This document shows positions 25,089-47,407 of a DNA stretch of 64,000 nt, one piece after another. Both the position numbers and the translations under genes were made by a program. The notes below the pieces were generated by a model. It worked only from the letters and a program-made list of their open reading frames with translations. It made no database searches and was not told the DNA's origin. Position 1 is the stretch's first letter; each line of letters starts with the position of its first letter. Source of the stretch: an uncultured Actinomycetes bacterium (GTDB taxonomy: Bacteria > Actinomycetota > UBA4738 > HRBIN12); contig CAWCXU010000013.1 in assembly GCA_963799625.1 (NCBI GenBank), positions 475,709-539,708 of the forward strand, in the 5' to 3' direction.

Positions 25089-27425
25089 TCAGACGGTCTC
25101 GGTCTCGCTGGTCGGCGTGCCCGACACCAGCATCGGCACCGAGGACAGCACCACGCGGTCCTCGTAGAGGAACAGCCGCTTGATGAACAGCGCGTTCTGG
25201 TTGTGCAACGGCAGCTGCCACCAATGGTTCACGATCACCTCGGGCACGATCACGTTGACCACGCTGCCCGGGTCCGACGAGTAGCGCCGCACCTCCTCGA
25301 GCATCGGCCCGGTCAGGTCGCGGAACGGCGCCTCCACGATGTCCAGCGGCACCCCGAGCCCGGCGTCGAACCACGCGGTCTCGAGCTTGTGCGCCGCCTC
25401 GGGATCGAGGTCGAAGTAGATCGCCCGCGTGACGCTCGCGTCCAGGGACCGCGCGTAGTTCACCGCACGGATCGTGAGGTCGTTCACGCTGGACAGGAAC
25501 ACCAGCGCGACCGTGCGGTGCGGGATCAGGGGCTTCCCGTCGACCCCGCGCACACCCTCGTGCGTGACGACGACGGGCACGTCGGTCACCACCACGTGCG
25601 GGATCCGAAGGAGCGACGCCTTGAGCCGCAGGAGATCCGACCGACGCAGCACGTAGGCGGGCAGACCCGATCCGACGAGCTCGGGCACGATCAGGTTCAC
25701 GACGTCGTGCGGGCCGAGATCCATCGACGCGATGGATCGTCGGACGCTCGCCGTCAGGCTCCCGGACCCGGCCGCCACGAGCGGCGGGGCACCGGCGCCG
25801 TACAGGGCCGTCCACTGCTCGGCGAGCTCAGCCGGCACCGAGGCGCGCGGGGTGAGCGCCCGCAGCGAGCGCGGGTGGAACGACCGGACGTAGCCGAGCG
25901 CCTCGGCGACCGCGGCATCGACGTCGCGGACCAGCAACACCACGTGGGTCTGCCCCGTCACACCCACCCGCTCGGTCCCGCGATGCACCGCCGAGCGGAC
26001 CCACGTGTAGTGGCGGTGGATCGCGTAGAACAGCGGCACGAGCAGCGCCATGATCAAGATCGAGAGCCAGGCGCCGTCCTTGAACTTCGACAGGATGACG
26101 ACGATCAGCACCACGAAGGTGGTGATCGCGCCGATGATGTTGATGACGATCGAGCGGCGCCACCCCTTCGCCGCGCCCTCGCCTTTGCGGCCCTCGGCGA
26201 GCCAGTGCCGCACCATCCCGCTCTGCGACAGCGTGAACGACGTGAACACGCCGACGACGTAGAAGTGGATCAGCGTGTTCAGGTCGGCGTCGAAGATGTA
26301 GATCATCAGCGACGACAGCAGCCCGAGCGCGACGACGCCGTTGGAGAACACGAGCCGGTCGCCCCGGTTCACGAACTGGCTCGGCATGAACCGGTCGCGT
26401 CCGAGGATCGAGGCGAGCCGTGGGAAGTCCTGGTACGCGGTGTTCGCCGCGAGGATCAAGATCGCGGCCGTGAACGCCTGCACCACGTAGAACCCGAGCG
26501 AGTTGTTGCCGAAGATCGCGACCGAGATCTGGGCGACGGCGGATCGCTCCTCGCTCGCGACGACCCCGTGCACGTGGGTCGCCAGGTAGGAGATCCCGAG
26601 GAACATCGTGACGGCGATCGTCCCCATGATCGCGAGCGTCGTCGCCGCGTTCCGGGCCTGGGGCCGTTTGAACGCCGGCACGCCGTTCGAGATCGCCTCG
26701 ACCCCGGTGAGAGCGGTCGCACCCTGGGAGAACGCCTTGAGCAGCGCGAAGACCGTGATCCCCGCGACCGCCGCCGGCGCCGCGATCTGCTCGGACGCCG
26801 GCACGACCGCCGGGCACCCGCCGAGGCACCGCACGGCCCCCACCCCGATGAGGACCAGGATCGACACGACGAACCCGTAGGTGGGGACCGCGAACAACGT
26901 GCCGGACTCGCGCGCGCCGCGGAGGTTCGCGATCGTCACGAGGGCGACGAACATGATCGACAGGACGACCTTGTGCTGGTTCGCCCACGGGAACGCCGAC
27001 CCGATCGCGAACACGCCGGCCACGATCGAGACGATCACCGTCATCATGTAGTCGAACAGCAATGCGGCAGCCGCGACGAGCCCCGCGAACGTGCCGAGGT
27101 TCTCCTTGCTCACGATGTAGGCCCCGCCGCCGCTGGGGTAGGCGCGGACGGTCTGCCGATACGAGCTCACGACGATCGCCATCAGCGCCGCGATCGCGAA
27201 CGAGATCGGCATCACGTACTTCGTGGGCGACGTCGTCGCGATCGTCAGGGCGATCAAGATCTCCCCGGTCGCGTAGGCAACCGACGACAACGCGTCGGAG
27301 GCGAAGACCGGGAGCGCGAGGATCTTCGGCAACAGCGTGTGCTCGAGGTGTTGGCTCGAGAACGCGCGGCCCACGAGGAACCGCTTCGCGAGCGATCCGG
27401 TCGAGGACTTGGCTTGGGCGTTCAT
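25089..27425 (-). CDS. KimA-family K+ transporter homologue (APC superfamily, usually annotated 'amino acid permease') with an enlarged, apparently duplicated C-terminal cytoplasmic domain (778 aa)
   Basis: TM core shares KimA/YdaO signature blocks: SDALSSVAYATGEIL, SYRQTVRAYPSGGGAYIVSKENLG, DYMMTVIVSIVAG, LTGVEAISNGVPAFKRPQARNAATTLA, LAANTAY, GVFTSFTLSQSGM, and C-terminal ...LHNQNALFIKRLFLYEDRVV. The cytoplasmic domain region occurs twice. Last gene of the HK1-RR1 operon (40-bp gap). Confidence 0.75.
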   Translation of the reverse strand: MNAQAKSSTGSLAKRFLVGRAFSSQHLEHTLLPKILALPVFASDALSSVAYATGEILIALTIATTSPTKYVMPISFAIAALMAIVVSSYRQTVRAYPSGGGAYIVSKENLGTFAGLVAAAALLFDYMMTVIVSIVAGVFAIGSAFPWANQHKVVLSIMFVALVTIANLRGARESGTLFAVPTYGFVVSILVLIGVGAVRCLGGCPAVVPASEQIAAPAAVAGITVFALLKAFSQGATALTGVEAISNGVPAFKRPQARNAATTLAIMGTIAVTMFLGISYLATHVHGVVASEERSAVAQISVAIFGNNSLGFYVVQAFTAAILILAANTAYQDFPRLASILGRDRFMPSQFVNRGDRLVFSNGVVALGLLSSLMIYIFDADLNTLIHFYVVGVFTSFTLSQSGMVRHWLAEGRKGEGAAKGWRRSIVINIIGAITTFVVLIVVILSKFKDGAWLSILIMALLVPLFYAIHRHYTWVRSAVHRGTERVGVTGQTHVVLLVRDVDAAVAEALGYVRSFHPRSLRALTPRASVPAELAEQWTALYGAGAPPLVAAGSGSLTASVRRSIASMDLGPHDVVNLIVPELVGSGLPAYVLRRSDLLRLKASLLRIPHVVVTDVPVVVTHEGVRGVDGKPLIPHRTVALVFLSSVNDLTIRAVNYARSLDASVTRAIYFDLDPEAAHKLETAWFDAGLGVPLDIVEAPFRDLTGPMLEEVRRYSSDPGSVVNVIVPEVIVNHWWQLPLHNQNALFIKRLFLYEDRVVLSSVPMLVSGTPTSETETV

Positions 27426-27465
27426 CGGCCCACGATGCTACGGCCCCGCCGGGCCGGTCCGGTCG

Positions 27466-28149
27466 TCACGACGCGTCGGCAACCCATCGGTACCCAACGC
27501 CCGGCTCGGTGACGATCAACGCCGGGGCCGAGGCGTCGTCGCCGAGCTTGCGCCGGAGCGCGCGGACGTAGGTGCGCAGGTACGTGGTCTCGGTGCCGTA
27601 CCCCTGCCCCCAGACGCGTCGCAGCAGCCACTGGTGGGTGAGCAGCTTGCCCGGGTTCGTCACCAGGACTTCGAGCAGGCCGTACTCGGTCGGCGTCAGG
27701 TGGACCTGCTCCCCGTCGATCGTCACGAGCTGCTTGGCGAGGTCCACCTGAAGCGCCCCGAAGACGAGGAGTGGGGCGTCGGGCTCACCCGAACCCTTGC
27801 GCCGCAGGGCTGCGCGTGAACGGGCGAGGAGCTCTTCCATCCCGAACGGCTTGGTGACGTAGTCGTCGGCGCCGGCGTCGAGCGCGGCGACCTTGTCGCT
27901 CTGCCCCTCGCGGACCGACAGGACGATGATCGGGACCTCGGAGAAGGCGCGCACCCGGGTGATCACCTCGGTGCCGTCCATGTCGGGCAGGCCGAGGTCG
28001 AGCAGGATCAGCTCGGGGTGCTGGCTCGCGGCGGCGACCACGCCCTCGTCGCCGGTCCCCACGGTCTCGACGACGTAGCCGTGCGCCTCCAGGCTCGTGC
28101 GGAGCGCGCGGCGGATCTGCGGCTCGTCGTCGACCACCAGCACCTTCAC
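27466..28149 (-). CDS. OmpR/KdpE-family response regulator (RR1)
   Basis: VKVLVVDDEPQIRRAL...LILLDLGLPDMDG...DAGADDYVTKPF; winged-helix C-terminus (LTPTEYGLLEVL...GVGYRW). GTG start overlaps the HK1 stop (GTGA). Confidence 0.85.
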   Translation of the reverse strand: MKVLVVDDEPQIRRALRTSLEAHGYVVETVGTGDEGVVAAASQHPELILLDLGLPDMDGTEVITRVRAFSEVPIIVLSVREGQSDKVAALDAGADDYVTKPFGMEELLARSRAALRRKGSGEPDAPLLVFGALQVDLAKQLVTIDGEQVHLTPTEYGLLEVLVTNPGKLLTHQWLLRRVWGQGYGTETTYLRTYVRALRRKLGDDASAPALIVTEPGVGYRWVADAS

Positions 28150-29627
28150 GCAGCCTCCTCCTCGATCGGCAGGTCCAGGACCAGGGCGGTCCCGCCGCCG
28201 GCGGTCTCCTCCACCCAGATCCGGCCGCCGTGCGCGGTCACGACGGCCCGCGCGATCGACAGTCCGAGCCCGCTGCCGGGCCGTTCGGGCTCCTCGCGGC
28301 CACGATAGAAGGGTTCGAACACCTTCTCGCGTTGCGCGAGAGGGATGCCCGGGCCTTCGTCGGCGACCCGCACGCGCACGGACGCGCCCTCGCGCGACAG
28401 GTGGATCCGGACGGTCCCGTTCGGCGGCGAGTGGCGCGCGGCGTTCTCCACGAGGTTGGTGAGCACCTGATCGAGCTGCATCGGGTCGGCCGCGATCTCC
28501 GGGAGCTCGTCGGGCACCTGCAGCTCCACCCGCACGCGCTCGAGCTGGGGCCGCATCCGCGCCACCACCGCGCCGGCGACCTCCTCGACGTCGGTCGGCA
28601 CGCGACGCGGGATCAACGCGCCGGCGCGGATCCGGGCGAGATCCAGGATGTTGCCCACCAGCCGGTTCAGGCGATCGGTCTCCTCGAGGATCGTCGTGAG
28701 GAGCTCGCGCTGCTGCGTCGCGTCGTGCACGGTCGAGGCGTCGAGCAGGCTCGTGACGCCGGCCTTGATGGACGCGAGCGGCGTGCGCAGGTCGTGTGTG
28801 ACCGAGGAGAACATCGCCGCGCGCAGCTGGTTGGTCTCGGCGTCGAGCTGGGCGAGCCGCGCGCGCGCGTCGAGGCGGGCACGGTCCAGCGCCACCGCCG
28901 CCTGGCGCGTCGCCGCCTCCAGGAGCTCGCGCTCGCGCCGCGTGAACGAACGCGCGCGCGCGGGCCGCTCGGTCGTCAGCGTCCCCAAGGGGACCGTCGC
29001 GATCACGACCGGCACGATCTCGGTCGGGCCGCCCAGCTCGGCGCCCTCGCGCCGCGCGATCGCGCTCATCTCCTGCCCGTCGAGCACCACTTGGACGCTG
29101 CAGATCGCCAGCCCGAACGGATCCAGCAACAGCGCGACGAACTCGTCGAGCACCCGATCGGGGACGTCGCCGGACAAGAGCTTGCTCGACAGGAGCGCGA
29201 GCAACCGGGCCTCGCGCTCGCGCTCGGTGGCCCGGCGCCGCTCCGCCGCGGCGTTCCCGACCACCAGACCCACCACAGCGGCGATCGCGAGGAACACCAC
29301 CGAGGCGATCACGTCGCGGAGTTGCTCGAACTGGAACCCGTTCGCGGGCTGCTCGATCCACGGCAGGGCCACCGATGACAGCAGCGCCGTCACGATCCCC
29401 GCCCAGATGCCGCCGCTGACCGCCGCGATCGTGACGGCGAGCATGAAGATCGCGACCCCCGCCCCGGGCCCGAGATCCCTGGTCAGGGCCACCAAAACGG
29501 CGCCGCACAGGGCCGCGCCGACCCCGATCGCGAGGGCGCGCGCCGAGATCTGGTCCACCCGCGGTTCCCTGCGATCCATCGCCACGACGGACACGCTACC
29601 GCCTCTATCTGCGCGATCCGGGCGCAT
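28146..29627 (-). CDS. KdpD-type sensor kinase lacking the N-terminal KdpD/Usp domains (DUF4118-like 4-TM + GAF + HisKA + HATPase_c), HK1
   Basis: Four TM helices then ...SSVTHDLRTPLASIKAG (H-box), N-box NLVENAARHSP, and DEGPGIP, GSGLGLSIARAVVTAHGG. Confidence 0.85.
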   Translation of the reverse strand: MRPDRADRGGSVSVVAMDRREPRVDQISARALAIGVGAALCGAVLVALTRDLGPGAGVAIFMLAVTIAAVSGGIWAGIVTALLSSVALPWIEQPANGFQFEQLRDVIASVVFLAIAAVVGLVVGNAAAERRRATEREREARLLALLSSKLLSGDVPDRVLDEFVALLLDPFGLAICSVQVVLDGQEMSAIARREGAELGGPTEIVPVVIATVPLGTLTTERPARARSFTRRERELLEAATRQAAVALDRARLDARARLAQLDAETNQLRAAMFSSVTHDLRTPLASIKAGVTSLLDASTVHDATQQRELLTTILEETDRLNRLVGNILDLARIRAGALIPRRVPTDVEEVAGAVVARMRPQLERVRVELQVPDELPEIAADPMQLDQVLTNLVENAARHSPPNGTVRIHLSREGASVRVRVADEGPGIPLAQREKVFEPFYRGREEPERPGSGLGLSIARAVVTAHGGRIWVEETAGGGTALVLDLPIEEEAA

Positions 29628-29654
29628 CCGGGGCGGGCCGGAGGGGAGAGGTCG

Positions 29655-29703
29655 TTCACGTTTTCTTCACGCGCCCTCGGGCATCCTTCACGCCCCGCTC
29701 ACG
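29655..29703. promoter_or_regulatory. Phased hexamer direct repeats TTCACG (x3) + CTCACG at 29655, 29666, 29687, 29698 (spacings 11/21/11 bp). Candidate OmpR/KdpE-type response-regulator box in the HK1/trkA divergent intergenic region.
   Basis: Read directly: cgTTCACGttttcTTCACGcgccctcgggcatccTTCACGccccgCTCACGct. The helical-turn phasing is typical of winged-helix RR tandem sites. Lies 28-76 bp upstream of the HK1 ORF start. Confidence 0.35.
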
Positions 29704-29917
29704 CTCATGCGACGACGCTTAGCGGCGGAAAGAGGGTCTCGTTGACCCCGGTGTCGGACCGTCACCCCCGGCACCGGTCGATGCGAGACGGAACACGAAC
29801 GAACCCACTTTCCTCCGAGCCCGTCTGCGGGGCCGGCAGCTCCCTCCAGCTGTCGGCCCGCAGGCATATCTGGGGCCGATCACGCCAAGGTCACGAGGCG
29901 GCGCACGCTGTCAGGCG

Positions 29918-30604
29918 GTGCACACGCGGGTACGCTTCCCGGCCATGCGGGTCCTGATCATGGGATGCGGTCGGGTCGGTTCCGAGCTCTCCCACGCGCT
30001 CGGCGACGCCGGTCACGAGGTCACGGTGATCGACAAACGCGCCGAGGCGTTCGATCGCTATCCCCCCGGCGAGCACGCGCGCACGATCGTCGGTCTCGGG
30101 TTCGACCGCGACGTGCTCGAGGAGGCCGGGATCCGCGAGGCCGATGCGTTCATCGCGGTCTCGAGCGGCGACAACTCCAACATCGTGTCGGCGCGCGTCG
30201 CGCTCGAGCACTACCACGTGCCCAAGGTGATCGCGCGGATCTTCGACCCGCGGCGCGCCGAGATCTACGAGCGGCTCAACATCCCGACGGTCGCGACGAC
30301 CACGTGGGGCGTGAAGCAGTTCCAGCTGATGCTGCTGCACACCGGCAAGGAGGTGCGCGAGAGCCTCGGCGGCGGCGAACTCCTGCGGGTGCGCGTCCCG
30401 GTGCCGAGCCACCTGGTCGGCAAGCCGGTGTCGACGTTGAACGTCGACGGGCACATCCTCGTCGCCGGCGTGTCGCGCGGCGGCAAGGGGTTCATCCCGT
30501 CGATCGACAGCACGCTGCAGGAGGGCGACTTCCTGATCGTCACGATGGGCAAGGACTACATGGACGAACTCGACACATTGCTCGAGCCGACGGAGCACCG
30601 CTGA
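29918..30604 (+). CDS. trkA: TrkA/CeoB-like K+ uptake regulatory protein (RCK/KTN NAD-binding N domain + TrkA_C)
   Basis: MRVLIMGCGRVGSELSHAL (GxGxxG Rossmann) ...C-terminal TrkA_C (LLRVRVPVPSHLVGKPVSTLNVDGHILVAGVSRGG). Stop overlaps the next trkA start (TGATG). Confidence 0.85.
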   Translation: MHTRVRFPAMRVLIMGCGRVGSELSHALGDAGHEVTVIDKRAEAFDRYPPGEHARTIVGLGFDRDVLEEAGIREADAFIAVSSGDNSNIVSARVALEHYHVPKVIARIFDPRRAEIYERLNIPTVATTTWGVKQFQLMLLHTGKEVRESLGGGELLRVRVPVPSHLVGKPVSTLNVDGHILVAGVSRGGKGFIPSIDSTLQEGDFLIVTMGKDYMDELDTLLEPTEHR

Positions 30605-31269
30605 TGCGGGTCGTGGTGACCGGGGGCGGCGCGATCGGACGCCACGTCGCAGGCGACCTCAGCACGCGCGGCCACGACGTCACGCTGATCGAGCAGGACA
30701 AGCAGACCGTCGAGGACCTCCGCGAGGAGATCCCCGAGGTGACGATCATGCTCGGCGACGCGTGCGAGCCGTGGGTGCTCGACGACGCGGAGCTCGCCCG
30801 CGCCGACGTGGTGGTCGCCGCTACCGGCGATGACGAGGACAACCTGGTCACGTCGCTGCTCGCCAAGCAGGAGTTCGCCGTGCCGAGGGTGCTCGCGCGC
30901 GTCAACCACCCGAAGAACGAGTGGCTCTTCACCGATCAGTGGGGTGTCGACACCGCCGTCTCGCCGCCCCACATGCTGACGTCGATGGTGGAGGAGGCCG
31001 TCACGACGGGCGACCTGGTGCAGCTCCTGCGGCTCGAGGGCGGCCAGATCTCGATCGTCGAGATGAAGCTCGCCGCCGACTCGCCGGCCGTCGGCAGGCC
31101 GATCTACGAGCTCCGCCTGCCCAACGACGCCGCGATCGTCGCGATCGTGCGCGACGCGCACGTCGTGATCCCGCAGCCCGAGACCGTGCTCGGCGGCGGC
31201 GACGAGCTGGTGGCGCTCGCCGCGATCGGGACCGAGCAGGCGCTTCGGGCCGCGATCGTCGGCGACTGA
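30604..31269 (+). CDS. trkA: Second TrkA/CeoC-like K+ uptake regulatory protein
   Basis: MRVVVTGGGAIGRHVAGDL...TrkA_C (ISIVEMKLAADSPAVGRPIYELRLPNDAAIVAIVRD). Confidence 0.85.
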   Translation: MRVVVTGGGAIGRHVAGDLSTRGHDVTLIEQDKQTVEDLREEIPEVTIMLGDACEPWVLDDAELARADVVVAATGDDEDNLVTSLLAKQEFAVPRVLARVNHPKNEWLFTDQWGVDTAVSPPHMLTSMVEEAVTTGDLVQLLRLEGGQISIVEMKLAADSPAVGRPIYELRLPNDAAIVAIVRDAHVVIPQPETVLGGGDELVALAAIGTEQALRAAIVGD

Positions 31270-31282
31270 GGCGGTCCGCCGC

Positions 31283-31975
31283 TCAGCCGCTCGGCTCGAC
31301 CTGCCAGCGATACCCGATCCGTGACTCGGTCACGATCGCGCGTGGGTGCCGCGGGTCGGGTTCGATCTTGCGCCGGAGCTGACTGACGAAGACCCGGAGC
31401 GCCTCGACGTCGGGGGCGCCGTCGGCGTCCCACACCTCGGCCAGCAGCCAGTCGTGCGTGCGGAGCACGCCCGGCGCGGTGGCGAGCGCCTCCAGCAGGC
31501 GCCACTCGGTCGGCGTCAGGTGGACCTGGTCCTCGCCGCGCCGCACGGATCGCGCGCCCAGGTCGATCCGGATGTCGTCGACCTCGAACCGGGTGCCGCT
31601 CGGCTCGGGCGCCGCCCGCCGCAGGAGCGCCCGTACCCGGGCCAGGAGCTCGGCAGCGCCGAACGGCTTCGTCAGGTAGTCGTCGGCGCCGAGGTCGAGC
31701 GCGGCGACCTTGTCCTGCTCGGCGTCGCGCACCGACAGCACGAGGATCGGCACCGAGCTGAACCGCCGGATCTCCCGGCAGGCGGTGAGCCCGTCGACGT
31801 GCGGCAGGTTGAGATCGAGCACGACCAGGTCGGGCTCGCGGTCGCGGACCGCGCCGACCGCGGCGCGCCCGTCGGTCGCCGTCGCGACGCGGAAGTCGCG
31901 GGCGAGCAGCGTCCGCTCCACCGCGCGGAGGATCTGGGGCTCGTCGTCGACGACGAGGATCAACGGGTCGCTCAT
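31283..31975 (-). CDS. OmpR/KdpE-family response regulator (RR2)
   Basis: MSDPLILVVDDEPQILRAV...LVVLDLNLPHVDG...winged helix LTPTEWRLLEAL...IGYRW. ATG overlaps the HK2 stop (ATGA). Confidence 0.85.
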   Translation of the reverse strand: MSDPLILVVDDEPQILRAVERTLLARDFRVATATDGRAAVGAVRDREPDLVVLDLNLPHVDGLTACREIRRFSSVPILVLSVRDAEQDKVAALDLGADDYLTKPFGAAELLARVRALLRRAAPEPSGTRFEVDDIRIDLGARSVRRGEDQVHLTPTEWRLLEALATAPGVLRTHDWLLAEVWDADGAPDVEALRVFVSQLRRKIEPDPRHPRAIVTESRIGYRWQVEPSG

Positions 31976-33360
31976 GCCGCCGGGAGCCGGAACCCCATCG
32001 TCGTTCCCCCGCCCGGGGTGTCGGTCGCCCAGATCTCGCCGCCCATCGCGGTGACGAAGCCCTTGCAGATCGCGAGACCGAGCCCGGCACTCAGGCGCGG
32101 CGACCCTTCCTGCAGCTTGTAGAACGGTGTGAAGAGCAGCTGCTGGTCGCCGAACGCGAGGCCGGGCCCGTGGTCGACCACCTGCACGACGACCACGCCG
32201 TCCGCCCGCTCCGCGGCGAGCTCGATCCGCCGGTCGGCGGCGCCCCGCACGGCGCGCGCCGCGTTCTCCACGAGGTTGGTGACGACCCGCTCCACGAACA
32301 GCTCGTCGCCCCGGACGCGGACGGCGTCGTCGGCGACCCGCACGTCGATCTCGACGCCCGGCCAGCGCTCGCGCACGCCGTCGACCGCCGGACCGACGAG
32401 ATCGTCCAGATCGACGAGGTCGGCGTGGGCCACGAGCGTGCCCGACTCGATCCGGGACATGTCGAGCAGGTTCGTGATCAGCTGCGCGAGCCGCCCGGCC
32501 GACGCGCGAACGTCCTCGAGCACGACCCGGGCGCTCTCGGGGTCGAACGTCTCGCGGTCGAGGATGTCGGTGACCGACGCGGTGATGGCGGCGATCGGGC
32601 TCTTCAGCTCGTGCGAGGCGGCCGCCAGCAACGATCGCCGCATGTCCTCGGTCCGCTTGTACAGCTCGGCCTCGCGGAGCTCCTGCTCCAGCCGCTCGGC
32701 CTGCACCACCAGCGCGACCTCGTCGGCGAACGTGCGGACGACACGGGTCTCGGCGGCCGTCAACGCCGGGCGATCCCCGACGAAGACCAACGAACCGACC
32801 CGCGCCGGGCCGACCCGCAGCGGGAACGCGGTCGCCGAGGAGGCGGCCGGATCGTCCTCGTCGCGGACCGAGGCCAGGACGAACCCGAGGCGTTCGGCCG
32901 CGCGACCGAGCGCCGGGGTAAGGCCCTCCGCCCGCTCGGACACCAGCACGTGGCTCAGATCGAACAGCAGCCGGACCTCCGCCTCGCGGTCCTCGGCCGC
33001 GGTCGCGCGCTCGTGCGCGACGCCCACCAGCCACGAGATCAACAGCGACATCGCGATGAACGCGAAGAACGCGACGACGTACTCGGTCCGCTCGAGGTCG
33101 AAGGTGCCGTAGGGGGGGAGGAACCCGACGTTGTACAGCGCCGACCCGACGATCGCGGCGACGATGCCGGGGACCACCCCACCGAGCCACGACGCCACCA
33201 CCACCGGCACGAGGAACGCGAACGCCGTCAGGGTGTGCGACAGCTGCACCCGGAAGGGCTCCATCACGGCGGCGATCGCGAGGGGGCCGAGCGTGGCGAC
33301 GAGGTAGGCGGCGCCGAGCAGCCACGAGGGCCTGCGGACGCCCAGCACACGCGTCGACAC
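31972..33360 (-). CDS. KdpD-type transmitter-only sensor kinase HK2 (4-TM + GAF + HisKA + HATPase_c)
   Basis: TM block ...NVGFLPPYGTFDLERTEYVVAFFAFIAMSLLIS (DUF4118-like FLPPY motif), H-box AAASHELKSPIAAITAS, HATPase motifs. GTG start at 33360 preferred. An alternative ATG at 33465 would overlap the divergent permease gene. Confidence 0.8.
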   Translation of the reverse strand: MSTRVLGVRRPSWLLGAAYLVATLGPLAIAAVMEPFRVQLSHTLTAFAFLVPVVVASWLGGVVPGIVAAIVGSALYNVGFLPPYGTFDLERTEYVVAFFAFIAMSLLISWLVGVAHERATAAEDREAEVRLLFDLSHVLVSERAEGLTPALGRAAERLGFVLASVRDEDDPAASSATAFPLRVGPARVGSLVFVGDRPALTAAETRVVRTFADEVALVVQAERLEQELREAELYKRTEDMRRSLLAAASHELKSPIAAITASVTDILDRETFDPESARVVLEDVRASAGRLAQLITNLLDMSRIESGTLVAHADLVDLDDLVGPAVDGVRERWPGVEIDVRVADDAVRVRGDELFVERVVTNLVENAARAVRGAADRRIELAAERADGVVVVQVVDHGPGLAFGDQQLLFTPFYKLQEGSPRLSAGLGLAICKGFVTAMGGEIWATDTPGGGTTMGFRLPAA

Positions 33361-33398
33361 GGCCGCGGTCCGATCCACGCTCGCAACGATAGTCGCCC

Positions 33399-33418
33399 TT
33401 ACGGAACCCTTATCCCGC
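33399..33418. promoter_or_regulatory. 20-mer TTACGGAACCCTTATCCCGC: two half-sites (TTACGG / TTATCC) 11 bp apart, in the HK2 / kimA-like-2 divergent intergenic region. 17/20 identical to a motif upstream of kdpF.
   Basis: Direct sequence comparison with 38151..38170 (TTACGGATCCCGTATGCCGC). Confidence 0.35.
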
Positions 33419-33437
33419 GCTTCTAGCGTGGACCGTG

Positions 33438-35891
33438 ATGCAGACCGACGACGCACCTCCCGCAACGTCCGCGGCGCCCGAGGCCGCGAGCCCTCCCTCC
33501 CGGCCGGCCGCGCGCCCGCCCTTGCCCCGGAGCTCGAGCTACGGGGTCAAGCGGGCGTTCCTCGGACCGGCGCTCCCGACCGCTCACCTGGTGCACGAGC
33601 GGCTCGGCAAGATCGCCGCGCTCGCGATCTTCAGCTCGGACGCGCTCTCCTCGGTCGCCTACGCCACCGAGGAGATGCTGAAGACCCTGGTGATCGCCGG
33701 GGTCGGCGTGCTCGCGTTCTCGCTGATCGTGCCGTTGTCGGGGGCGATCGTGGCCGTCCTCGCGATCCTCGTCTTCAGCTATCGGCAGACGATCAAGGCC
33801 TACCCGTCGGCGGGCGGCGCCTACATCGTCACGAAGGACAACTTCGGACTGATCCCAGCCCAGGTGGCCGGCGTCGCGCTGCTGACGGATTACGTGCTGA
33901 CCGTCGCGGTGTCGGTGTCCGCCGGCGTCGCGGCGATCATCGCGCTCGTGCCGGTGACCGCGCCGTTCCGCGTCGAGATGGCCGTCGCGTCGATCGCCCT
34001 GATCGCCTACGGCAACCTCCGGGGCGTCCGGGAGTCCGGGAAGATCTTCGCGGCGCCGACCTACGTGTTCATCGGGTGCATCATGTCGCTGCTCATCGTC
34101 GGGGTCGTGCGCGCGGCGACCGGGTCGCTCGCCGTGCCGCCGCCGGTCACGACAGGCGGCGCGCTGTCGGCCTTCGCGCTCGTCCCCGCGTTCGTCGCGT
34201 TGCACGCGCTGGCATCGGGCAGCACGGCGATGACGGGCGTGGAGGCGATCTCGAACGGCGTGCCGGCCTTCAAGCCCGTCGAATGGAAGCACGCGAGGCA
34301 GACGCTCGTCGCGCTCGGGCTGCTTCTGGCCACGATGTTCATGGGGATCTCGTGGCTCGCCGCGAAGCTCCAGGTCGCGCCGGACTTCACCGGGCGCTCG
34401 ACGGTGGTCGCCGACATCGGCAAGGCGGTCTACGGCACGAGCCCGCTCGGGCACGCCGCCTTCGCCCTGCTGCAGATCGCGACGGCGCTGATCCTCGTGC
34501 TCGCGGCCAACACGGCCTACGCCGACTTCCCACGTCTGGCGAACTTCCACGCCGGGGACGACTTCTTGCCGCGGCAGTTCACGACGCGCGGGCACCGGCT
34601 CGTGTTCTCGAACGGGATCTTGGCGCTGTCGGCGGCCGCGATGCTGCTGGTCGTCCTGTTCCGCGCCGACGTGACGCGGCTGATCCCGTTCTACGCGATC
34701 GGGGTGTTCACCTCGTTCACGCTGTCGCAGGCGGGGATGGCCAAGCGGCACCTCAGGCTTCGCGAGGAAGGGTGGCGGGTCGGCCTCGCGATCAACGGGG
34801 TCGGCGCCGTCGCGACGGGGGTCGTGCTCGCGATCGTGGCCCGGACGAAGTTCGCCGAGGGCGCCTGGGTGATCTTGATCCTCGTGCCGGTGATGGTTGT
34901 CCTGCTGGTGCGGATGAACCACCAGTACGAGCGCGAGAAGAGGGAGCTCGAACGGGACCTGAAGGCGTTCACGCCGCCGACCAGCCGGCCCCCGATCACG
35001 ATCTTGCTCGTCGAGGACCTCGACCCCAAGACCGTGCACGCGTTGCAGTACGCCCGGACGATCCGCTCCGAGCGGACGATCGCCGTGCACGTCGAGGAGG
35101 ACCGCGCGCGCACGCAGGCGCTCGAGGCCGCGTGGCAGACCGCCGGACTCGACGCGATCCCGCTGCGGATCGTGCGCGGCCGCGGCGACGAGGCGGCGCG
35201 CCTCGCCGGCTTCCTCGCGGCCTACGAGCGTGAGGACCGGGACGCGATCGTGATCGTGCCCGTCCCTCACGAACGGACGTTGCGCGAGCACGTCGCCGAC
35301 CGGCGCGCAGGCGCGCGGCTGCACCGCGCGCTCCTGTCCTACGGTCATGTGCGGGTCACCATGGTCCGCGACCACCCCGACGGCGTGCACCCCTTGCAGC
35401 GTGACGAGGACGGGCGACCGGTCGTGCGCCTCACCGCCCGGCAGACGCACGACGTCGTCGTGTTGGTCGACAAGCTCGACCGAGCGACGCTGCAGGCCGT
35501 CGCGTACGCGCTCGGGCTCGGCACGCGGTCGGTCCGCGCGGTCCACGCCGCCGTCGACCCCGATCGGGCAACCCGCCTCGCGGAGCGGTGGTCGGAGCTG
35601 CGTGCACCCGTCCCTCTCGACGTGATCGAGTGCTGGGACCGGGACGTGCCCCGCGCGGTCGAGCGCTACGTCGTCGGCATGGCGTCGGAGGGCACCGAGG
35701 TGACGGTCGTCATGCCCCGGCGCGACTACCCGCGCCTGCGCCAGCGGCTCCTGCACGACCGCACGAGCCGGAAGATCGAGCGGGCGCTCGGGCGCTACGC
35801 GCACATCGACGTCGCGGACATCCCGTACTACGTCCGGGGCGTGCCCGAGCCGATCGACGCGCGGGCCGAGGACGTCCTCGAGCCCGTCTGA
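33438..35891 (+). CDS. KimA-family K+ transporter homologue 2 (818 aa) with extended C-terminal cytoplasmic domain
   Basis: Same signature blocks as the paralogue (SSDALSSVAYATEEML, SYRQTIKAYPSAGGAYIVTKDNFG, MTGVEAISNGVPAFKP, LAANTAYADFPRLA, GVFTSFTLSQAGM) plus C-terminal ITILLVEDLDPKTVHALQYARTIRSERTIAVHVEED. Stop abuts the stop of the convergent kdpE-like gene. Confidence 0.75.
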   Translation: MQTDDAPPATSAAPEAASPPSRPAARPPLPRSSSYGVKRAFLGPALPTAHLVHERLGKIAALAIFSSDALSSVAYATEEMLKTLVIAGVGVLAFSLIVPLSGAIVAVLAILVFSYRQTIKAYPSAGGAYIVTKDNFGLIPAQVAGVALLTDYVLTVAVSVSAGVAAIIALVPVTAPFRVEMAVASIALIAYGNLRGVRESGKIFAAPTYVFIGCIMSLLIVGVVRAATGSLAVPPPVTTGGALSAFALVPAFVALHALASGSTAMTGVEAISNGVPAFKPVEWKHARQTLVALGLLLATMFMGISWLAAKLQVAPDFTGRSTVVADIGKAVYGTSPLGHAAFALLQIATALILVLAANTAYADFPRLANFHAGDDFLPRQFTTRGHRLVFSNGILALSAAAMLLVVLFRADVTRLIPFYAIGVFTSFTLSQAGMAKRHLRLREEGWRVGLAINGVGAVATGVVLAIVARTKFAEGAWVILILVPVMVVLLVRMNHQYEREKRELERDLKAFTPPTSRPPITILLVEDLDPKTVHALQYARTIRSERTIAVHVEEDRARTQALEAAWQTAGLDAIPLRIVRGRGDEAARLAGFLAAYEREDRDAIVIVPVPHERTLREHVADRRAGARLHRALLSYGHVRVTMVRDHPDGVHPLQRDEDGRPVVRLTARQTHDVVVLVDKLDRATLQAVAYALGLGTRSVRAVHAAVDPDRATRLAERWSELRAPVPLDVIECWDRDVPRAVERYVVGMASEGTEVTVVMPRRDYPRLRQRLLHDRTSRKIERALGRYAHIDVADIPYYVRGVPEPIDARAEDVLEPV

Positions 35892-36591
35892 TCACGCGTC
35901 GCCGGCCGGATCCTCGCTCCAGCGGTACCCGATCCCCGGCTCGGTGACGATCGCCCGCGGGCGCCGCGGATCGGGCTCGATCTTGCGCCGGAGCTGGCTG
36001 ACGAACACGCGAAGCACCTCGACGTCCTCGCCGTACGGGTCCCCCCAAACGCGTTCGAGCAGCCACCGGTGGGTGAGCAGCTTCCCGGGGTGGGCCGTGA
36101 GCGCCTCCAGCAGCGCCCACTCCGTCTTGGTGAGATGCACGTCGCCGTCACCCCGCGTGACGCGGTGCGCCTGCATGTCGATCGACACGCCGTCGAGCCG
36201 GTACCGCGCCGTCCCGTCGGCGGGGGCCCCCTCGCCCCGGCGCAGCAGCGCGCGGACGCGCGCGAGCAGCTCCCCCGTGCCGAACGGCTTCGTCAGGTAG
36301 TCGTCGGCCCCGAGGTCCAGCGCGGCGATCTTGTCGGGCTCCTCGTCGCGCACCGACAGCACGATGATCGGCACGCTGCTCCACGCGCGGATCCGCCGGC
36401 AGAACTCGAGCCCGTCGAGCACCGGCATGTTGAGATCGAGGACCACGAGATCAGGTGGCGACGCCGCCGCGAGGTCGAGTGCCAACAGCGCCGTCGGGGG
36501 CGAGCTCGACCGCATAGTCTCGCGCGACGAGCGATCGTTCGATCGCCTCGCGGATCTGCGGCTCGTCGTCGACCACGAGGATCTTCGTCAC
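35892..36591 (-). pseudogene. kdpE: KdpE-like OmpR-family response regulator (RR3) with a frameshift near 36503. Possible pseudogene or assembly indel.
   Basis: N-terminus VTKILVVDDEPQIREAIERSLVARDYAVELAPDG in one frame. The remainder (ALLALDLAAASPPDLVVLDLNMP...winged helix...GIGYRW) is in the frame of ORF 35892..36515(-). A 2-nt loss in a gcgc context fits. GTG start overlaps the kdpD3 stop (GTGA). Confidence 0.7.
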
Positions 36592-38087
36592 GAGGCCTCC
36601 TGCAACGAGAAGGCGAAGGTCGCGCCCCCGCCAGGGGTGTCCTCGAGCCAGATCTCCCCGCCCATCAGATCGACGAACCCCCGCGCGATCGCGAGCCCGA
36701 GGCCGGAGCCGAGTTTCGTCGTCCGCTCGTCGAGCCGGGCGAAGGGCAGGAACAGCTGGGTGCGCTCCCGCGTGGTGAGTCCCGCCCCGTGGTCGACGAC
36801 CTTGACCGCCACCTGGGCGCGCCGTTGCCCGTGGTCGGTCGGACCGATCTCGATCTCCACCGACGGGCTGCCGGCGGCCACGGCCGACCGCGCCGCGTTG
36901 TCCAGGAGGTTCGACACCACCCGGGGGAAGAAGACCGGGTCGGCGACCGCGACCTCGTGCCCGTCGTCGATCGCCATGGCGATGTGCACGTCGGGCCAGC
37001 GCAGCGCCGCCGCGTCGACCTCGGCCGTGACGGTCTCCGCGAGATCGACGTGCTCGAGGTGCGCCTGCACGACGCCGGCCTCGATCCGCGACAGGTCCAG
37101 GAGGTTCGCGACGAGCGCGTCGAGCCGGTCGGCCTCGCTGTCGACCACGTGCAGGACGGCCGCACGCTCCGCCGTCGAGCGCTCCACCTCGGGATCGAGC
37201 AGATCGGTGACCGACGCCTTGATCGCCGCCAGGGGGCTCCGGAGGTCGTGCGAGACCGCGGCGAGCATCGTTCGGCGCGCCGTCTCGGTCTGCCGGAGGA
37301 TCTCGGCGTCGGTCGCGGTGCGCAGCAGCCGGTCGCGCTCGAGCACCAGCGCGAGCTGGTCACAGACCGCACGCAGCACCCGCACCTCCGCGGGGTCCAG
37401 CGCGGGCCGCGACCCGGTGAGCACGATCAGGCCCAGCGTTCGGTTGCCGACCGACAACGGCAGCCGTTGCGGCGCGCGTCCCGGGTCGGCCGGGTTCCAC
37501 GACGGGCTGATCGACCCGGCCGGAGCGCCGACGACCACCCGCTCGTCGAGCCCACCCTCGGCGCCGCTCACGAACAGGGCGCCCGCGTCGAATCCGAACC
37601 GCGTGACGACGTCGCCGAGCAGCGCGCCGTACATCTCCTCTCCCGGACCCCGCACCACGAGGTCGCGGCTCAGCTCCTGCAGCGTCTGCAGCTCGCGCTC
37701 CTTCGCCTCGGCGACCTCCGCCCGCTCCACCGCACGGGAGTAGAGCGAGGAGATCAGCACCGACAACGCGAGGAACACGACGAGCGCGACCACGTGCTCG
37801 CCCCGTGCGATCACGAACGAGTCGTACGGCGGCAGGAAGAAGAAGTTGAACGTCAGGAACGACACGACCGCCGCGAGCAACCCCGGTCCCAGCCGCCCGA
37901 CGATCGCCGCGGCGACCACGACGACCAGGAAGGTGAAACCGATCGTGAGCGGCTGCAAGGTGTCGCGGAACGGGAGGAACACGAGCACGACAGCCGCCGG
38001 ACCGGCGACCGCGATGAGGTACCCGATCGCGCGAAGACGTCCTCTCGGCGCCGCGCGGAGCAGCGCGAGGGTGCGTGCGGTGCGCAT
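36588..38087 (-). CDS. kdpD: KdpD-type transmitter-only sensor kinase HK3, divergent from kdpFABC
   Basis: FLTFNFFFLPPYDSFVIARGEHVVALVVFLALSV (DUF4118 signature), GAF-like middle, H-box AAVSHDLRSPLAAIKAS, HATPase (LLDNAARSAV, DHGAGL, GSGLGLAIARGFVDLMGG). Confidence 0.85.
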   Translation of the reverse strand: MRTARTLALLRAAPRGRLRAIGYLIAVAGPAAVVLVFLPFRDTLQPLTIGFTFLVVVVAAAIVGRLGPGLLAAVVSFLTFNFFFLPPYDSFVIARGEHVVALVVFLALSVLISSLYSRAVERAEVAEAKERELQTLQELSRDLVVRGPGEEMYGALLGDVVTRFGFDAGALFVSGAEGGLDERVVVGAPAGSISPSWNPADPGRAPQRLPLSVGNRTLGLIVLTGSRPALDPAEVRVLRAVCDQLALVLERDRLLRTATDAEILRQTETARRTMLAAVSHDLRSPLAAIKASVTDLLDPEVERSTAERAAVLHVVDSEADRLDALVANLLDLSRIEAGVVQAHLEHVDLAETVTAEVDAAALRWPDVHIAMAIDDGHEVAVADPVFFPRVVSNLLDNAARSAVAAGSPSVEIEIGPTDHGQRRAQVAVKVVDHGAGLTTRERTQLFLPFARLDERTTKLGSGLGLAIARGFVDLMGGEIWLEDTPGGGATFAFSLQEAS

Positions 38088-38150
38088 GGTCGAAGGATAG
38101 CCAGCGCGGCAACGACGCTCGACCGTCCGGACCGCCCGCGGACGAGACCT

Positions 38151-38170
38151 TTACGGATCCCGTATGCCGC
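38151..38170. promoter_or_regulatory. 20-mer TTACGGATCCCGTATGCCGC in the kdpD3 / kdpF divergent intergenic region. Conserved with 33399..33418. A further TCACGG hexamer lies about 25 bp downstream.
   Basis: Read directly; 17/20 identity to the HK2-permease2 intergenic motif. Confidence 0.35.
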
Positions 38171-38234
38171 ACGCGTCGTTCCTCACGGTTGCCTGATGTC
38201 CGCTGACTACGGTCGGGGCCAGGAGGTGAGGACC

Positions 38235-38318
38235 GTGTGGGATCTCTGGGTCGGCGTCATCACCGCGGTGTTCTTCGTGGTGGCCTTCGCCCTCGTCCGC
38301 TGGTTCGACGCGATATGA
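38235..38318 (+). CDS. Small hydrophobic leader peptide (27 aa, single TM) preceding kdpF/kdpA
   Basis: AGGAGG then GTG..., VWDLWVGVITAVFFVVAFALVRWFDAI*. Stop overlaps the next small ORF (ATGA). Confidence 0.4.
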   Translation: MWDLWVGVITAVFFVVAFALVRWFDAI

Positions 38319-38403
38319 ACATCGCCGATGCGCTCGAGCTCGCGCTCGCGCTCGCGCTGCTCGTCTATCTCGTGTACGTGTTGATCCGCCCGGAGCGATT
38401 CTG
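38314..38403 (+). CDS. kdpF: KdpF-like K+-transporting ATPase small subunit (29 aa)
   Basis: MNIADALELALALALLVYLVYVLIRPERF*. The LVYLVYVLI core resembles KdpF (…LGYLVYALI…). Its TGA overlaps the kdpA ATG. Confidence 0.55.
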
Positions 38404-40073
38404 ATGGGCACGATCGTCGTCTACACGCTCCTGTTGATCGTGCTGACGCCGCCGCTGGGCGCCTACCTGTACCGCGTCTACACGAGCGAGCGCACCGGCC
38501 GGATCGAGGGCGTCTTCTATCGGGTGCTCGGCGTGAACCCCGACGCCGAGCAATCGTGGCGCCGGTACGCGACGGCGGTCCTGTGGTTCAGCGTGATCAG
38601 CATGGTGTTCGTCTACCTCGTGCTGCGGTGGCAACAGCATCTACCGCTGAACCCCGAAGGCTTCGCGGGCGTGAACCCGTACCTGTCGTTCAACACCGCC
38701 GCGAGCTTCATGACCAACACGAACTGGCAGTCCTACGGCGGCGAGACGACGATGAGCTACCTCTCCCAGATGCTCGCGCTGACGTTCCAGAACTTCGTGT
38801 CGGCCGCGGTGGGCATCGCGGTCGTGATCGCGATGATCCGCGGGTTCACGCGCGCCGGCACCGACAACGTCGGGAACTTCTGGCGCGACCTCGTGCGCGG
38901 CGTCGTCTACGTCCTGTTGCCGATGTCCGTGCTGGTCGCGATCGTCCTCATGAGCCAGGGTGTCGTGCAGACCCTCAGCCCCTCCGCGTCGGTCACCGGG
39001 ATCCAGGGGTTCGCGCAGGTGATCGCGCGCGGTCCGGTCGCGAGCCAGATCGCGATCAAGCAGCTCGGCACGAACGGCGGCGGGTTCTTCAACGTGAACT
39101 CGGCGCACCCGTTCGAGAACGCGACGCCGATCTCGAACTTCGTCGAGGCGTTCGCGATCCTGTGGATCGCCGCGGCGCTGACCTACACGTTCGGCAAGAT
39201 GGTCGGCAACGTCCGCCAGGGCTGGGTGCTGTTCGGCGTGATGTGGATCCTGCTGGTCGCCGGTCTGGCGCTCACCGTCCCCGGCGAGCGGACCGCCACC
39301 CCCGCGATGCAAGCGGCGGGCGTCGCCGGCAGACCGCGCCCAACCTCGAGGGCAAGGAGGTGCGCTTCGGACCCGACGCGTCGTCGCTGTGGTCGGTCGC
39401 CACCACCGACGCCTCGAACGGGAGCGTCAACTCGATGCTCGACTCGTACCAGCCGCTCGGCGGGCTCGCGCCGATGTTCAACATCGCGATCGGCGAGGTG
39501 ATCTTCGGCGGGGTCGGCAGCGGGCTGTACGGGATGATCTTCTACGTCGTGATCGCCGTGTTCATCGGCGGGCTGATGGTCGGCCGCACCCCCGAGTACC
39601 TCGGCAAGAAGATCGGCGCGCGCCAGGTCAAGATCGTCGTGATCGCCGTGCTCGTGCCGTTCCTGGTGGCGCTCGCGTTCACGGCGTTGGCGGTGGTGAC
39701 ACCGTCGGGCCTGGCCGGGCCGCTCAACACCGGCCCTCACGGGTTCAGCGAGATCTTCTACGCGTACCTGTCGCAGGGGAACAACAACGGTTCGGCGTTC
39801 GCGGGGCTCACCGCGAGCTCGCCGTACTACACGATCACCGGCGGCATCGCGATGCTCGTCGCCCGCTTCGTGCCGCTGATCGCGGCGCTCGCGCTCGGCG
39901 CGAGCGTGGGCAGGGAGCGCACCGTGCCGTTCACGGCGGGGACGCTGCGGACCGACACGGGACTGTTCGCCGGCCTGCTGACCGGCGTGATCGTGATCAT
40001 CGGCGCCTTGACGTTCCTGCCCGGGCTCGCCCTCGGTCCGATCGTCGAGCACCTGCAGAAGGGGCTGAGCTGA
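38404..40073 (+). pseudogene. kdpA: KdpA (K+-transporting ATPase subunit A) with a -1 frameshift near 39330. Possible pseudogene or assembly indel.
   Basis: N-terminal 300 aa (MGTIVVYTLLLIVLTPPLGAYLYRVY...) are in ORF 38404..39501. The remainder (NLEGKEVRFGPDASSLWSVATTDASNGSVNSMLDSYQPLGG...EVIFGGVGSGLYGM...) is in the frame of ORF 38556..40073. The junction …AGVAG|QTAPNLEGKE aligns with KdpA if one c is restored in gccggc(c)agacc. Confidence 0.8.
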
Positions 40074-40074
40074 G

Positions 40075-46895: not shown

Positions 46896-47032
46896 CGAAC
46901 CTCCCACAGGGATACGAGCTCCCCGGGCTTTGAGCCGCGGGGTCAAGGACCGGAGAAGGATACCGGACCTCGTGGTACGTGACCTGCGGAAGAAGGTCTC
47001 CCGGGGGCCCGGCTGCCGCTACGATGCAGCGC

Positions 47033-47407
47033 ATGCGGACGGTCCTGGCGGTCGCGCTCGCCGGCGCTCTGGGGGCGCTCGCACGCTGGGGCATCGGCTC
47101 GTGGTTCGGCCACCGCTTCCCGTCGTTCCCGTGGGGCACCCTCGTCATCAACGTGAGCGGCTCGTTCATCCTCGGCGTGCTGTTCGCGGTGCTCGTCCAA
47201 CGGAACGCCGGCTCACCCACGATGCGCGTCGCGCTGATGACCGGGCTTCTGGGCGCCTACACGACGTTCTCGACGTTCTCGCTCGAGACGTTCCGGCTCT
47301 TCGAGGACGGCGCGACCGGCTCGGCGCTCGCGAACATCGGGCTCAGCGTGTGCTTGGGGTTGCTCGGCGTGTGGCTCGGCATCACGGCCGGGAGGGCCTT
47401 CGCCTGA
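47033..47407 (+). CDS. crcB: Fluoride ion channel CrcB/Fluc
   Basis: MRTVLAVALAGALGALARWGIGSW...FPWGTLVINVSGSFILGVL...GLLGAYTTFSTFSLE (CrcB signature). No fluoride riboswitch recognised upstream. Confidence 0.8.
   Translation: MRTVLAVALAGALGALARWGIGSWFGHRFPSFPWGTLVINVSGSFILGVLFAVLVQRNAGSPTMRVALMTGLLGAYTTFSTFSLETFRLFEDGATGSALANIGLSVCLGLLGVWLGITAGRAFA

Follow-up and report, generated by a model that had tools for sequence, protein, structure and literature searches.

A conserved tetrad of TTCACG repeats as a predicted KdpE-type operator, and the structured RNA downstream of it, in uncultured Actinomycetota

The present study concerns a 64,000-nucleotide stretch of DNA, referred to here as the window, from an uncultured Actinomycetes bacterium (GTDB lineage Actinomycetota; UBA4738; HRBIN12; GenBank assembly GCA_963799625.1, contig CAWCXU010000013.1, positions 475,709 to 539,708), in which four TTCACG-like hexamers lie in direct repeat between divergent genes for a KdpD-like histidine kinase (HK1) and a TrkA-type protein (trkA). 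We propose, with a probability of roughly 0.7, that this tetrad is a two-dimer operator through which the KdpE-like response regulator encoded beside the kinase (RR1) activates a rightward promoter that yields a structured RNA. Boxes 1-2 and boxes 3-4 would form two tandem dimer sites for phosphorylated RR1, all on one face of the helix, and the bound protein would stand in for a -35 element at the weak -10 hexamer GACGCT, as PhoB does at the pho box. Binding would thereby switch on a plus-strand promoter that makes, in this genome, a structured RNA of ~155 nt, the signal presumably being potassium limitation. In three distant contigs the same layout would drive a leaderless gene, apparently for a KimA-like K+ permease.

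Sequence and conservation of the tetrad

The first-pass annotation of this DNA had described four hexamers spaced 11, 21 and 11 bp apart, and the window sequence bears this out on the plus strand, with TTCACG starting at 29655, 29666 and 29687 and CTCACG at 29698. The boxes are listed below with their approximate positions relative to the predicted rightward transcription start.

29655-29660, plus strand: box 1, TTCACG, putative distal half-site of the upstream dimer site, at about -71 to -66.
29666-29671, plus strand: box 2, TTCACG, 11 bp after box 1, at about -60 to -55.
29687-29692, plus strand: box 3, TTCACG, 21 bp after box 2, at about -39 to -34, overlapping the would-be -35 position.
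29698-29703, plus strand: box 4, CTCACG, 11 bp after box 3, at about -28 to -23, ending 10 nt before a -10-like hexamer.

A lone copy of TTCACG carries little weight in the window (G+C content 70.5%) because the hexamer occurs there 58 times (30 on the plus and 28 on the minus strand), against ~18 expected from base composition. The tetrad pattern with up to three mismatches was found once in the window and in none of 100 dinucleotide-preserving shuffles, and 11-bp pairs, whether exact or with one mismatch, fell only at the tetrad. An ATCACG-N5-GTCACG pair at 29879-29895, ~50 nt before the trkA promoter, was set aside as probably due to chance, having two mismatches and being absent from the closest relatives.

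Searching the genome collection with HK1 yielded 48 relevant loci, all from metagenome-assembled genomes (MAGs) of uncultured Actinomycetota, with HK1 identities of ~40-91% (mostly 54-91%). Across the window and the 42 of these loci that had a usable upstream region, box 1 was present at its register in every sequence, and the register itself (11 bp, a 15-nt gap between the two box pairs, 11 bp) was identical in 43/43; the TCACG cores of the best tetrads carried at most two changes, and the spacers varied freely. Most orthologs have C as the first base of box 4, and some have T. Boxes 1-2 have the pair consensus TTCACGnGATCTTCACGC, and the anchored alignment as a whole gives TTCACGnGATCTTCACGCc-N8-gaTCCTTCACGCnnCcCTCACG. 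When a degenerate pair pattern was applied to 615 kb of loci plus the window, it matched essentially only tetrad sites, the exceptions being an extra pair upstream of the second KimA-like gene, PERM2, in three loci (L013, L025 and L038) and one pair adjoining an ortholog of a further kinase, HK3, in L014. Such a strong phylogenetic footprint indicates that the tetrad is a functional cis element.

One scan of the metagenome collection with the exact tetrad pattern gave more than 120 stretches, from which 80 loci were kept. About 50 of the 80 have an HK1 ortholog on the left and/or a trkA or KimA-like gene on the right, and ~13 are low-GC tandem repeats unrelated to the HK1 locus. A few high-GC contigs (L082, L111, L157, L125, L130, L137 and L147) contain GTTTCACG arrays with an 11-bp phase and up to six or more units; these were discarded, as they sit in other gene contexts unrelated to the HK1 locus, and their unit resembles half of a parS site. 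The over-representation of TTCACG in the window and the exact tetrads inside the low-GC tandem repeats could be taken to mean that the boxes are a product of chance, non-functional, or a fragment of a tandem array. This explanation is refuted by the comparative data, the register being retained in every orthologous region while the spacers have diverged and no shuffle reproducing the tetrad, and its probability is close to nil.

RR1 as the candidate regulator and its relation to known operators

The genes that flank the tetrad are as follows.

28146-29585, minus strand: HK1, a histidine kinase with DUF4118, HisKA and HATPase domains (Pfam), resembling the C-terminal half of KdpD.
27466-28149, minus strand: RR1, an OmpR-family response regulator with receiver and Trans_reg_C domains, a KdpE-like paralog and the presumed binder of the boxes.
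25089-27425, minus strand: kimA, encoding a 778-amino-acid APC-family permease homologous to KimA-type K+ transporters.
29945-30604 and 30604-31269, plus strand: two tandem trkA-type genes, each with TrkA_N and TrkA_C domains (Pfam, NCBIfam).

The best match of RR1 among solved structures was Escherichia coli KdpE (4KNY, E = 1e-62), followed by MtrA (1e-43); against the NCBIfam KdpE model it reached 243 bits, which is below the cutoff of 325 and therefore marks it as a KdpE-like paralog and not an equivalog. HK1 covers only positions 596-884 of the 895 in the NCBIfam KdpD model (197 bits against a cutoff of 1123) and, unlike E. coli KdpD, has neither the N-terminal KdpD domain nor the Usp domain. 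The E. coli regulator recognises direct repeats of TTTA(T/C)A set 5 bp apart, in which the TT at positions 1-2 is invariant, and the KdpE residues R193, R200 and T215 are essential; the operator of KdpE at the kdpFABC promoter is TTTATA-N5-TTTACA at -72 to -50 (PMC3264566). RR1 keeps KdpE residues Y191, R193, R200 and T215, and its recognition helix, ETTYLRTY(V/I)RxLR(K/R)KL, is near-invariant in all RR1 orthologs, both those of the genome loci and those on tetrad-bearing metagenome contigs. The tetrad was linked to an RR1 ortholog in all loci with enough flanking sequence, and in the distant lineage L158 it is paired with a regulator that keeps the signature YLRxxVRxLR. The two paralogous regulators in the window, RR2 and RR3, have in common a helix, DVE(A/V)LRVFVSQLRRKI, that is unlike that of RR1, and they adjoin TTACG-type half-sites. 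On the grounds of linkage, co-invariance and family resemblance, RR1 is most likely the protein that binds the TTCACG boxes.

The arrangement of the boxes agrees with this assignment. All four are hexamers repeated head to tail on one strand in 43/43 sequences, and the distances are invariant across the set, the 11 bp within pairs amounting to about one helical turn and the 21 bp between pairs keeping all four on one face. The suggestion in the first-pass annotation of a tandem site of the OmpR/PhoB/KdpE type has thus held up, 6-bp direct repeats with an 11-bp phase being found in every ortholog beside a KdpE-like regulator with a near-invariant helix. TTCACG and the KdpE consensus TTTA(T/C)A have T1, T2, A4 and C5 in common, position 3 here being C and position 6 G, with box 4 starting with C. 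Like the E. coli operator, the tetrad consists of TT-first 6-bp direct repeats with a 5-bp spacer in a K+ uptake context, the reader of the former being RR1's closest solved relative, and boxes 1-2, at about -71 to -55, lie nearly where the E. coli operator does. The E. coli operator is a single dimer site, whereas two are seen here, the proximal one overlapping the -35 position, and its target is kdpFABC, which in the window instead adjoins HK3/RR3.

An actinobacterial comparison is offered by the KdpE site of Mycobacterium smegmatis, a 22-bp sequence (CCGTAAAGAAACCATCAAGGCC) defined by DNase footprinting and electrophoretic mobility shift assay and reported with a SigF-type promoter and a 120-nt 5' untranslated region (PMC5401905). 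By our own reading, its reverse complement is TTGATG-N5-TTTACG, which follows the same 11-bp direct-repeat logic, so that an 11-bp direct repeat of TT-first hexamers is also the form of an experimentally defined actinobacterial KdpE site. Its TTTACG is the half-site found beside the RR3/kdp and RR2 paralogs in the window. The M. smegmatis site differs from the tetrad in being a single dimer site and in having A, not C, at position 3 of the half-site, and its orientation to the promoter is not stated in the text of the paper.

In the pho box of PhoB described by Makino and colleagues, tandem 11-bp units lie 10 bp upstream of the -10 element and replace the -35 element. The tetrad resembles it in its tandem 11-bp units, in several units lying on one helical face, in the last half-site ending 10 nt before the -10 and in the absence of a -35 element; it is unlike the pho box in half-site sequence, in regulator subfamily, in regulon (K+ as against phosphate) and in having its pairs separated by an empty helical slot (21 bp) where pho-box units are contiguous. 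By these comparisons the element is most likely a KdpE-type operator of the OmpR family whose half-site is new and whose layout, with two dimer sites, is pho-box-like. Searching the literature for response regulators in combination with TTCACG direct repeats returned nothing.

Binding by some other OmpR-family regulator encoded elsewhere, of the PhoP, MtrA or GlnR type, appears improbable. Actinobacterial sites of these three types also hold TCAC cores, and the Streptomyces PHO box is built of GTTCACC units in 11-nt direct repeats, which TTCACG resembles and which would suit the pho-box geometry with its 10 nt before the -10. The linkage of the tetrad to RR1 orthologs, the near-invariance of their helix and the related signature in L158 speak against such a regulator, as does the gene content, since the neighbouring genes are all related to K+ transport and none to phosphate, nitrogen or the cell wall. 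No pst or pho genes and no PhoR/PhoP pair were found nearby, the neighbours being K+ transport genes and KdpDE-like pairs.

Predicted promoters and a conserved structured RNA

The candidate promoter elements around the tetrad are listed here.

29714-29719, plus strand: GACGCT, predicted weak -10 hexamer of a box-dependent rightward promoter, with no -35 match at the proper distance.
29931-29936, plus strand: TACGCT, predicted -10 of trkA's own promoter, the ATG being at 29945.
29593-29598, minus strand: TAGCGT, predicted -10 of the leftward HK1 promoter, 56 nt from box 1.
27435-27440, minus strand: TAGCAT, kimA's own hexamer, which in most loci precedes the start codon by 7-10 nt.

In the anchored alignment, a hexamer of the form (G/C)AnnnT stands exactly 10 nt after box 4 in all sequences with no -35 match, which is the geometry of a pho box, and few columns are better conserved than its A (+60) and T (+64); among the high-GC metagenome tetrads, both bases are kept in 48/62. 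The actinobacterial -10 element, TAnnnT, is defined by these same A and T positions. Judged by this comparison, the one fixed partner of the tetrad is the rightward -10-like hexamer, pointing to trkA and not to HK1. In two distant contigs (L102 and L124) the tetrad is followed after 10 nt by TAACTC or TATCTC and, 6 nt later, by the GTG of a leaderless gene, the N-terminus of whose product looks KimA-like (41% identity to PERM1 by tblastn in L102); L158 is similar. From this leaderless layout, transcription would start ~7 nt after the hexamer, and the structured RNA described below begins 7-8 nt after it in both of its size classes. A related arrangement is found at the promoter of the paralog PERM2 in the window, where CTTACG (33398), N5, CTTATC (33409), 9 nt and TAGCGT (33424-33429) precede the GTG at 33435 of a leaderless PERM2; this layout is kept in L002 and L011, and L020 has TTTACG-N5-CATACG, 10 nt and GATGCT. 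Upstream of kdpF (38150-38166) lies TTTACG-N5-CGTATG, a kdp site without the 10-nt geometry.

On the leftward side, the motif ACGCTA(G/C)C is widely kept at a variable distance from the tetrad, the gap between the HK1 hexamer and box 1 being ~6 nt in many distant loci and 56 nt in the clade of the window. TAGCGT stands just before GTG 29585 or ATG 29579, one of which is most probably the HK1 start, so that the HK1 transcript would be leaderless or nearly so; an upstream start at ATG 29627 was rejected, as it would place the conserved hexamer inside the gene. With either start, the divergent region measures ~360 bp and not the 290 bp first given for it. A TAnnnT hexamer was found 6-11 nt before the trkA start codon in 72/72 distinct sequences, from which it follows that trkA mRNA would be leaderless or nearly so and made from a proximal promoter. 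More generally, a TAnnnT hexamer precedes the start codons of kimA, HK1, trkA and PERM2 by 5-13 nt, none of the four has a Shine-Dalgarno sequence, and leaderless transcription appears to be the norm at this locus and in its relatives.

The first-pass annotation had put the repeats forward as a candidate autoregulatory KdpE-like box upstream of an HK1-RR1-kimA operon that might also affect trkA. A KdpE-like box between HK1 and trkA is retained in our account; what fits poorly is the leftward target, given that the distance is fixed at 10 nt on the trkA side and ranges over ~6-56 nt on the HK1 side, and the operon itself is doubtful because kimA has a conserved hexamer of its own. An effect of the boxes on trkA is possible. 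The structured RNA that would be the direct product of the rightward promoter had no place in that annotation. That the boxes serve mainly as an autoregulatory operator of the divergent HK1-RR1(-kimA) unit, with phosphorylated RR1 raising or limiting its own synthesis, we regard as unlikely, though there is evidence for it beyond their position between the two genes. In the many distant loci with only ~6 nt between the HK1 hexamer and box 1, the -35 region of that hexamer would be covered by boxes 1-2, and six loci (L003, L004, L006, L009, L010 and L030) carry an extra TTCACG 18 nt from TAGCGT; in the clade of the window, by comparison, the sequence 17 nt upstream of TAGCGT is TTGGAT (L002 and L011) or CCGGAT (window), well away from the boxes. 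Positive autoregulation is also common among two-component systems. Tetrads in the opposite, CGTGAA-first orientation, with the 11/21/11 register and 28 nt before a conserved TACAAC, were observed in L093 (2530-2578) and L145 (847-895); that of L145 lies upstream of a kdpF-kdpA operon, and that of L093 upstream of an open reading frame (ORF) of ~250 amino acids that precedes kdpA and whose N-terminus has no Pfam match. Taken together, autoregulation of HK1 is plausible but probably secondary, its geometry not being conserved.

The transcript that the rightward promoter would produce is described by the following features.

~29727-29883, plus strand: structured RNA of ~155 nt, with a predicted 5' end and an approximate 3' end.
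29727 and 29805, plus strand: P1, predicted 5' helix, in which GGAAAGAGG at 29727 pairs with CCACUUUCC at 29805.
29812-29819, plus strand: motif CCUCCGAG, unchanged in 33/37 distinct sequences.
29825-29863, plus strand: P2 hairpin, with a conserved loop, UCCCUCCA, at 29841-29848.

This element lies downstream of the hexamer in every locus except three (L037, L042 and L048), in which a KimA-like gene follows directly; its size ranges from 85 to 160 nt across classes, and the P2 loop conserved across loci is CCCUCCAG. In an alignment of 25 sequences, P2 was 95% paired with compensatory changes in 10 of 12 pairs, values reached by 0/500 column shuffles, and in slid controls pairing fell to 26-52%. 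The P2 pair-type tables, by our tally, contain 37 G-U cells against ~10 A-C cells, and this excess places the structure in the plus-strand transcript, the strand that the promoter model predicts. The minimum free energy of the window RNA (29727-29884) is -82 kcal/mol (z = -4.6), and examples of the short class have z = -3.6 to -7.3. A covariance model built from the alignment and searched in the window and the 48 loci had a single match in the window (29790-29883, plus strand, 75.9 bits) and one copy each in 42/48 loci, always immediately behind the tetrad and on the opposite strand to HK1, with nothing elsewhere. A regular expression for the two RNA motifs gave 83 matches in 1.09 Mb, 79 of them with a tetrad no more than 260 nt upstream; the other four fall in coding sequence and are likely due to chance.

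Against Rfam 15, only a transfer RNA reached threshold in the whole window, and nothing was found at E <= 10 in 29500-30050; matches in L017 to Scr3202 (20.8 bits) and several microRNA precursors were dismissed as chance-level hits to a generic hairpin. A small ORF was likewise rejected, as neither a start codon nor a reading frame in the region is conserved between the two size classes. When the window was searched for sites complementary to the C-rich motifs of the RNA (CUCGGAGG and CUGGAGGG), none was found near a start codon.

The transcript could instead be a cis-acting 5' leader or attenuator, possibly sensing a ligand or ion, that controls read-through into trkA or, in other genomes, into PERM2. 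The RNA does lie always upstream of K+ uptake genes on the same strand, and the L012 class has a terminator-like second hairpin after P2, GC-rich and with a U-rich tail; moreover, K+ transporter genes of Firmicutes are controlled by a cyclic di-AMP riboswitch leader (PMC6488665; discussion in 10.1101/2023.07.05.547876). On the other side, trkA's own hexamer in 72/72 sequences implies a leaderless mRNA that would be poorly translated from a read-through transcript, L025 and L038 have a second TTCACG pair and -10 hexamer for PERM2 after the RNA, and the RNA matches no Rfam riboswitch. In L032-L036 the next gene after the RNA is a convergent one for a Crp/Fnr-like regulator, which in L032 (4352-5110) and in L034-L036 is inserted between the RNA and trkA. 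We consider a leader doubtful; trkA's hexamer, the second promoter in L025 and L038 and the convergent gene together favour an independent RNA gene.

If the RNA is such a gene, the main conserved output of this KdpE-like system may be, in place of a transporter operon, a new family of small structured RNAs, marked by CCUCCGAG and the loop CCCUCCAG, that would act in trans, for example by masking Shine-Dalgarno-like GGAGG sequences or binding a protein, and so adjust ion homeostasis after transcription. We advance this tentatively, at somewhat less than even odds. Small RNAs that depend on response regulators include OmrA/B under OmpR and MgrR under PhoP, and C-rich loops are found in 6C RNA, RsaE/RoxS and sX13. 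The locus resembles the former in that a predicted response-regulator promoter leads to a short structured RNA, and the latter in carrying C-rich motifs like an anti-Shine-Dalgarno sequence (CCUCC), here in a loop and a linker; unlike these known RNAs, it matches no Rfam family in sequence or structure. We know of no KdpE-type regulator that has a small RNA as its main output.

Several observations weigh against RR1 activating a rightward promoter for a structured RNA. The box-dependent promoter is predicted from comparative evidence, in an organism known from metagenome assemblies, and a consensus promoter scan of 29400-30100 found nothing; the scan is blind to promoters without a -35 element, and a null result is therefore expected for one of this kind. 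The first base of the -10 hexamer is G or C and not T, and TTCACG agrees with the E. coli half-site TTTACA at only 4/6 positions. The opposite-orientation tetrads in L093 and L145 mean that orientation by itself is no bar to the boxes acting on the HK1 promoter to the left. Within 29400-30100 no canonical U-tract terminator was found, which makes the 3' end of the RNA and its independence from trkA less certain.

Gene neighbourhood and significance

The order trkA2-trkA1 <> HK1-RR1-KimA-GNAT is widely kept among the loci, six of which have a second KimA-like gene between HK1 and trkA. The kimA product matches Bacillus subtilis KimA (6S3K) with E = 2.9e-124. Within 10 kb of the tetrad lie two further paralogous kinase/regulator pairs, HK2/RR2, divergent from the second KimA-like gene, and HK3/RR3, divergent from kdpF/kdpA. 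With these (31283-38230), the window contains three KdpD-like (DUF4118-HisKA-HATPase) and KdpE-like pairs in ~10 kb, each beside a K+ uptake gene (the KimA homolog, the second KimA-like gene and kdpF/A). Because kdpF/A lies ~8.5 kb from the tetrad and adjoins HK3/RR3, and the tetrad is flanked by HK1 and trkA, the latter would be a KdpE-like operator and not a kdp operator.

Several genes of the kdp region appear broken: the RR3 reading frame (35892-36587) is without a proper receiver N-terminus, the KdpA ORF (region 38230-42142) covers only Pfam positions 2-306 of 548, and at 40973-42142 only a HAD fragment, presumably of kdpB, was detected. These breaks look like frameshifts, either in pseudogenes or from assembly indels. 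In seven loci (L014, L018, L021, L022, L026, L039 and L045), short tblastn matches to only the N-terminal ~250 residues of HK3 were found beside trkA2 with no kinase core detected, and these may represent sensor-like membrane proteins that stand alone. Ion-homeostasis genes abound in the wider region, among them an H+-pyrophosphatase gene at 44619-47018 and a partial ORF for an NhaA-type Na+/H+ antiporter at 47382-48233.

For this uncharacterised KdpE-like branch, the analysis provides a precise candidate operator, with TTCACG as half-site, two dimer sites and a pho-box-like placement, and it suggests how half-sites and recognition helices are kept separate between paralogous K+ two-component systems of one genome. 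The likely target shifts from the kinase operon to the divergent promoter. A further outcome, and the part most worth following, is a conserved RNA that has the support of covariation and no counterpart in Rfam. To our knowledge, no post-transcriptional layer has been described for KdpDE systems, and if this RNA is indeed a riboregulator dependent on a KdpE-type protein, it would add such a layer to bacterial K+ homeostasis.

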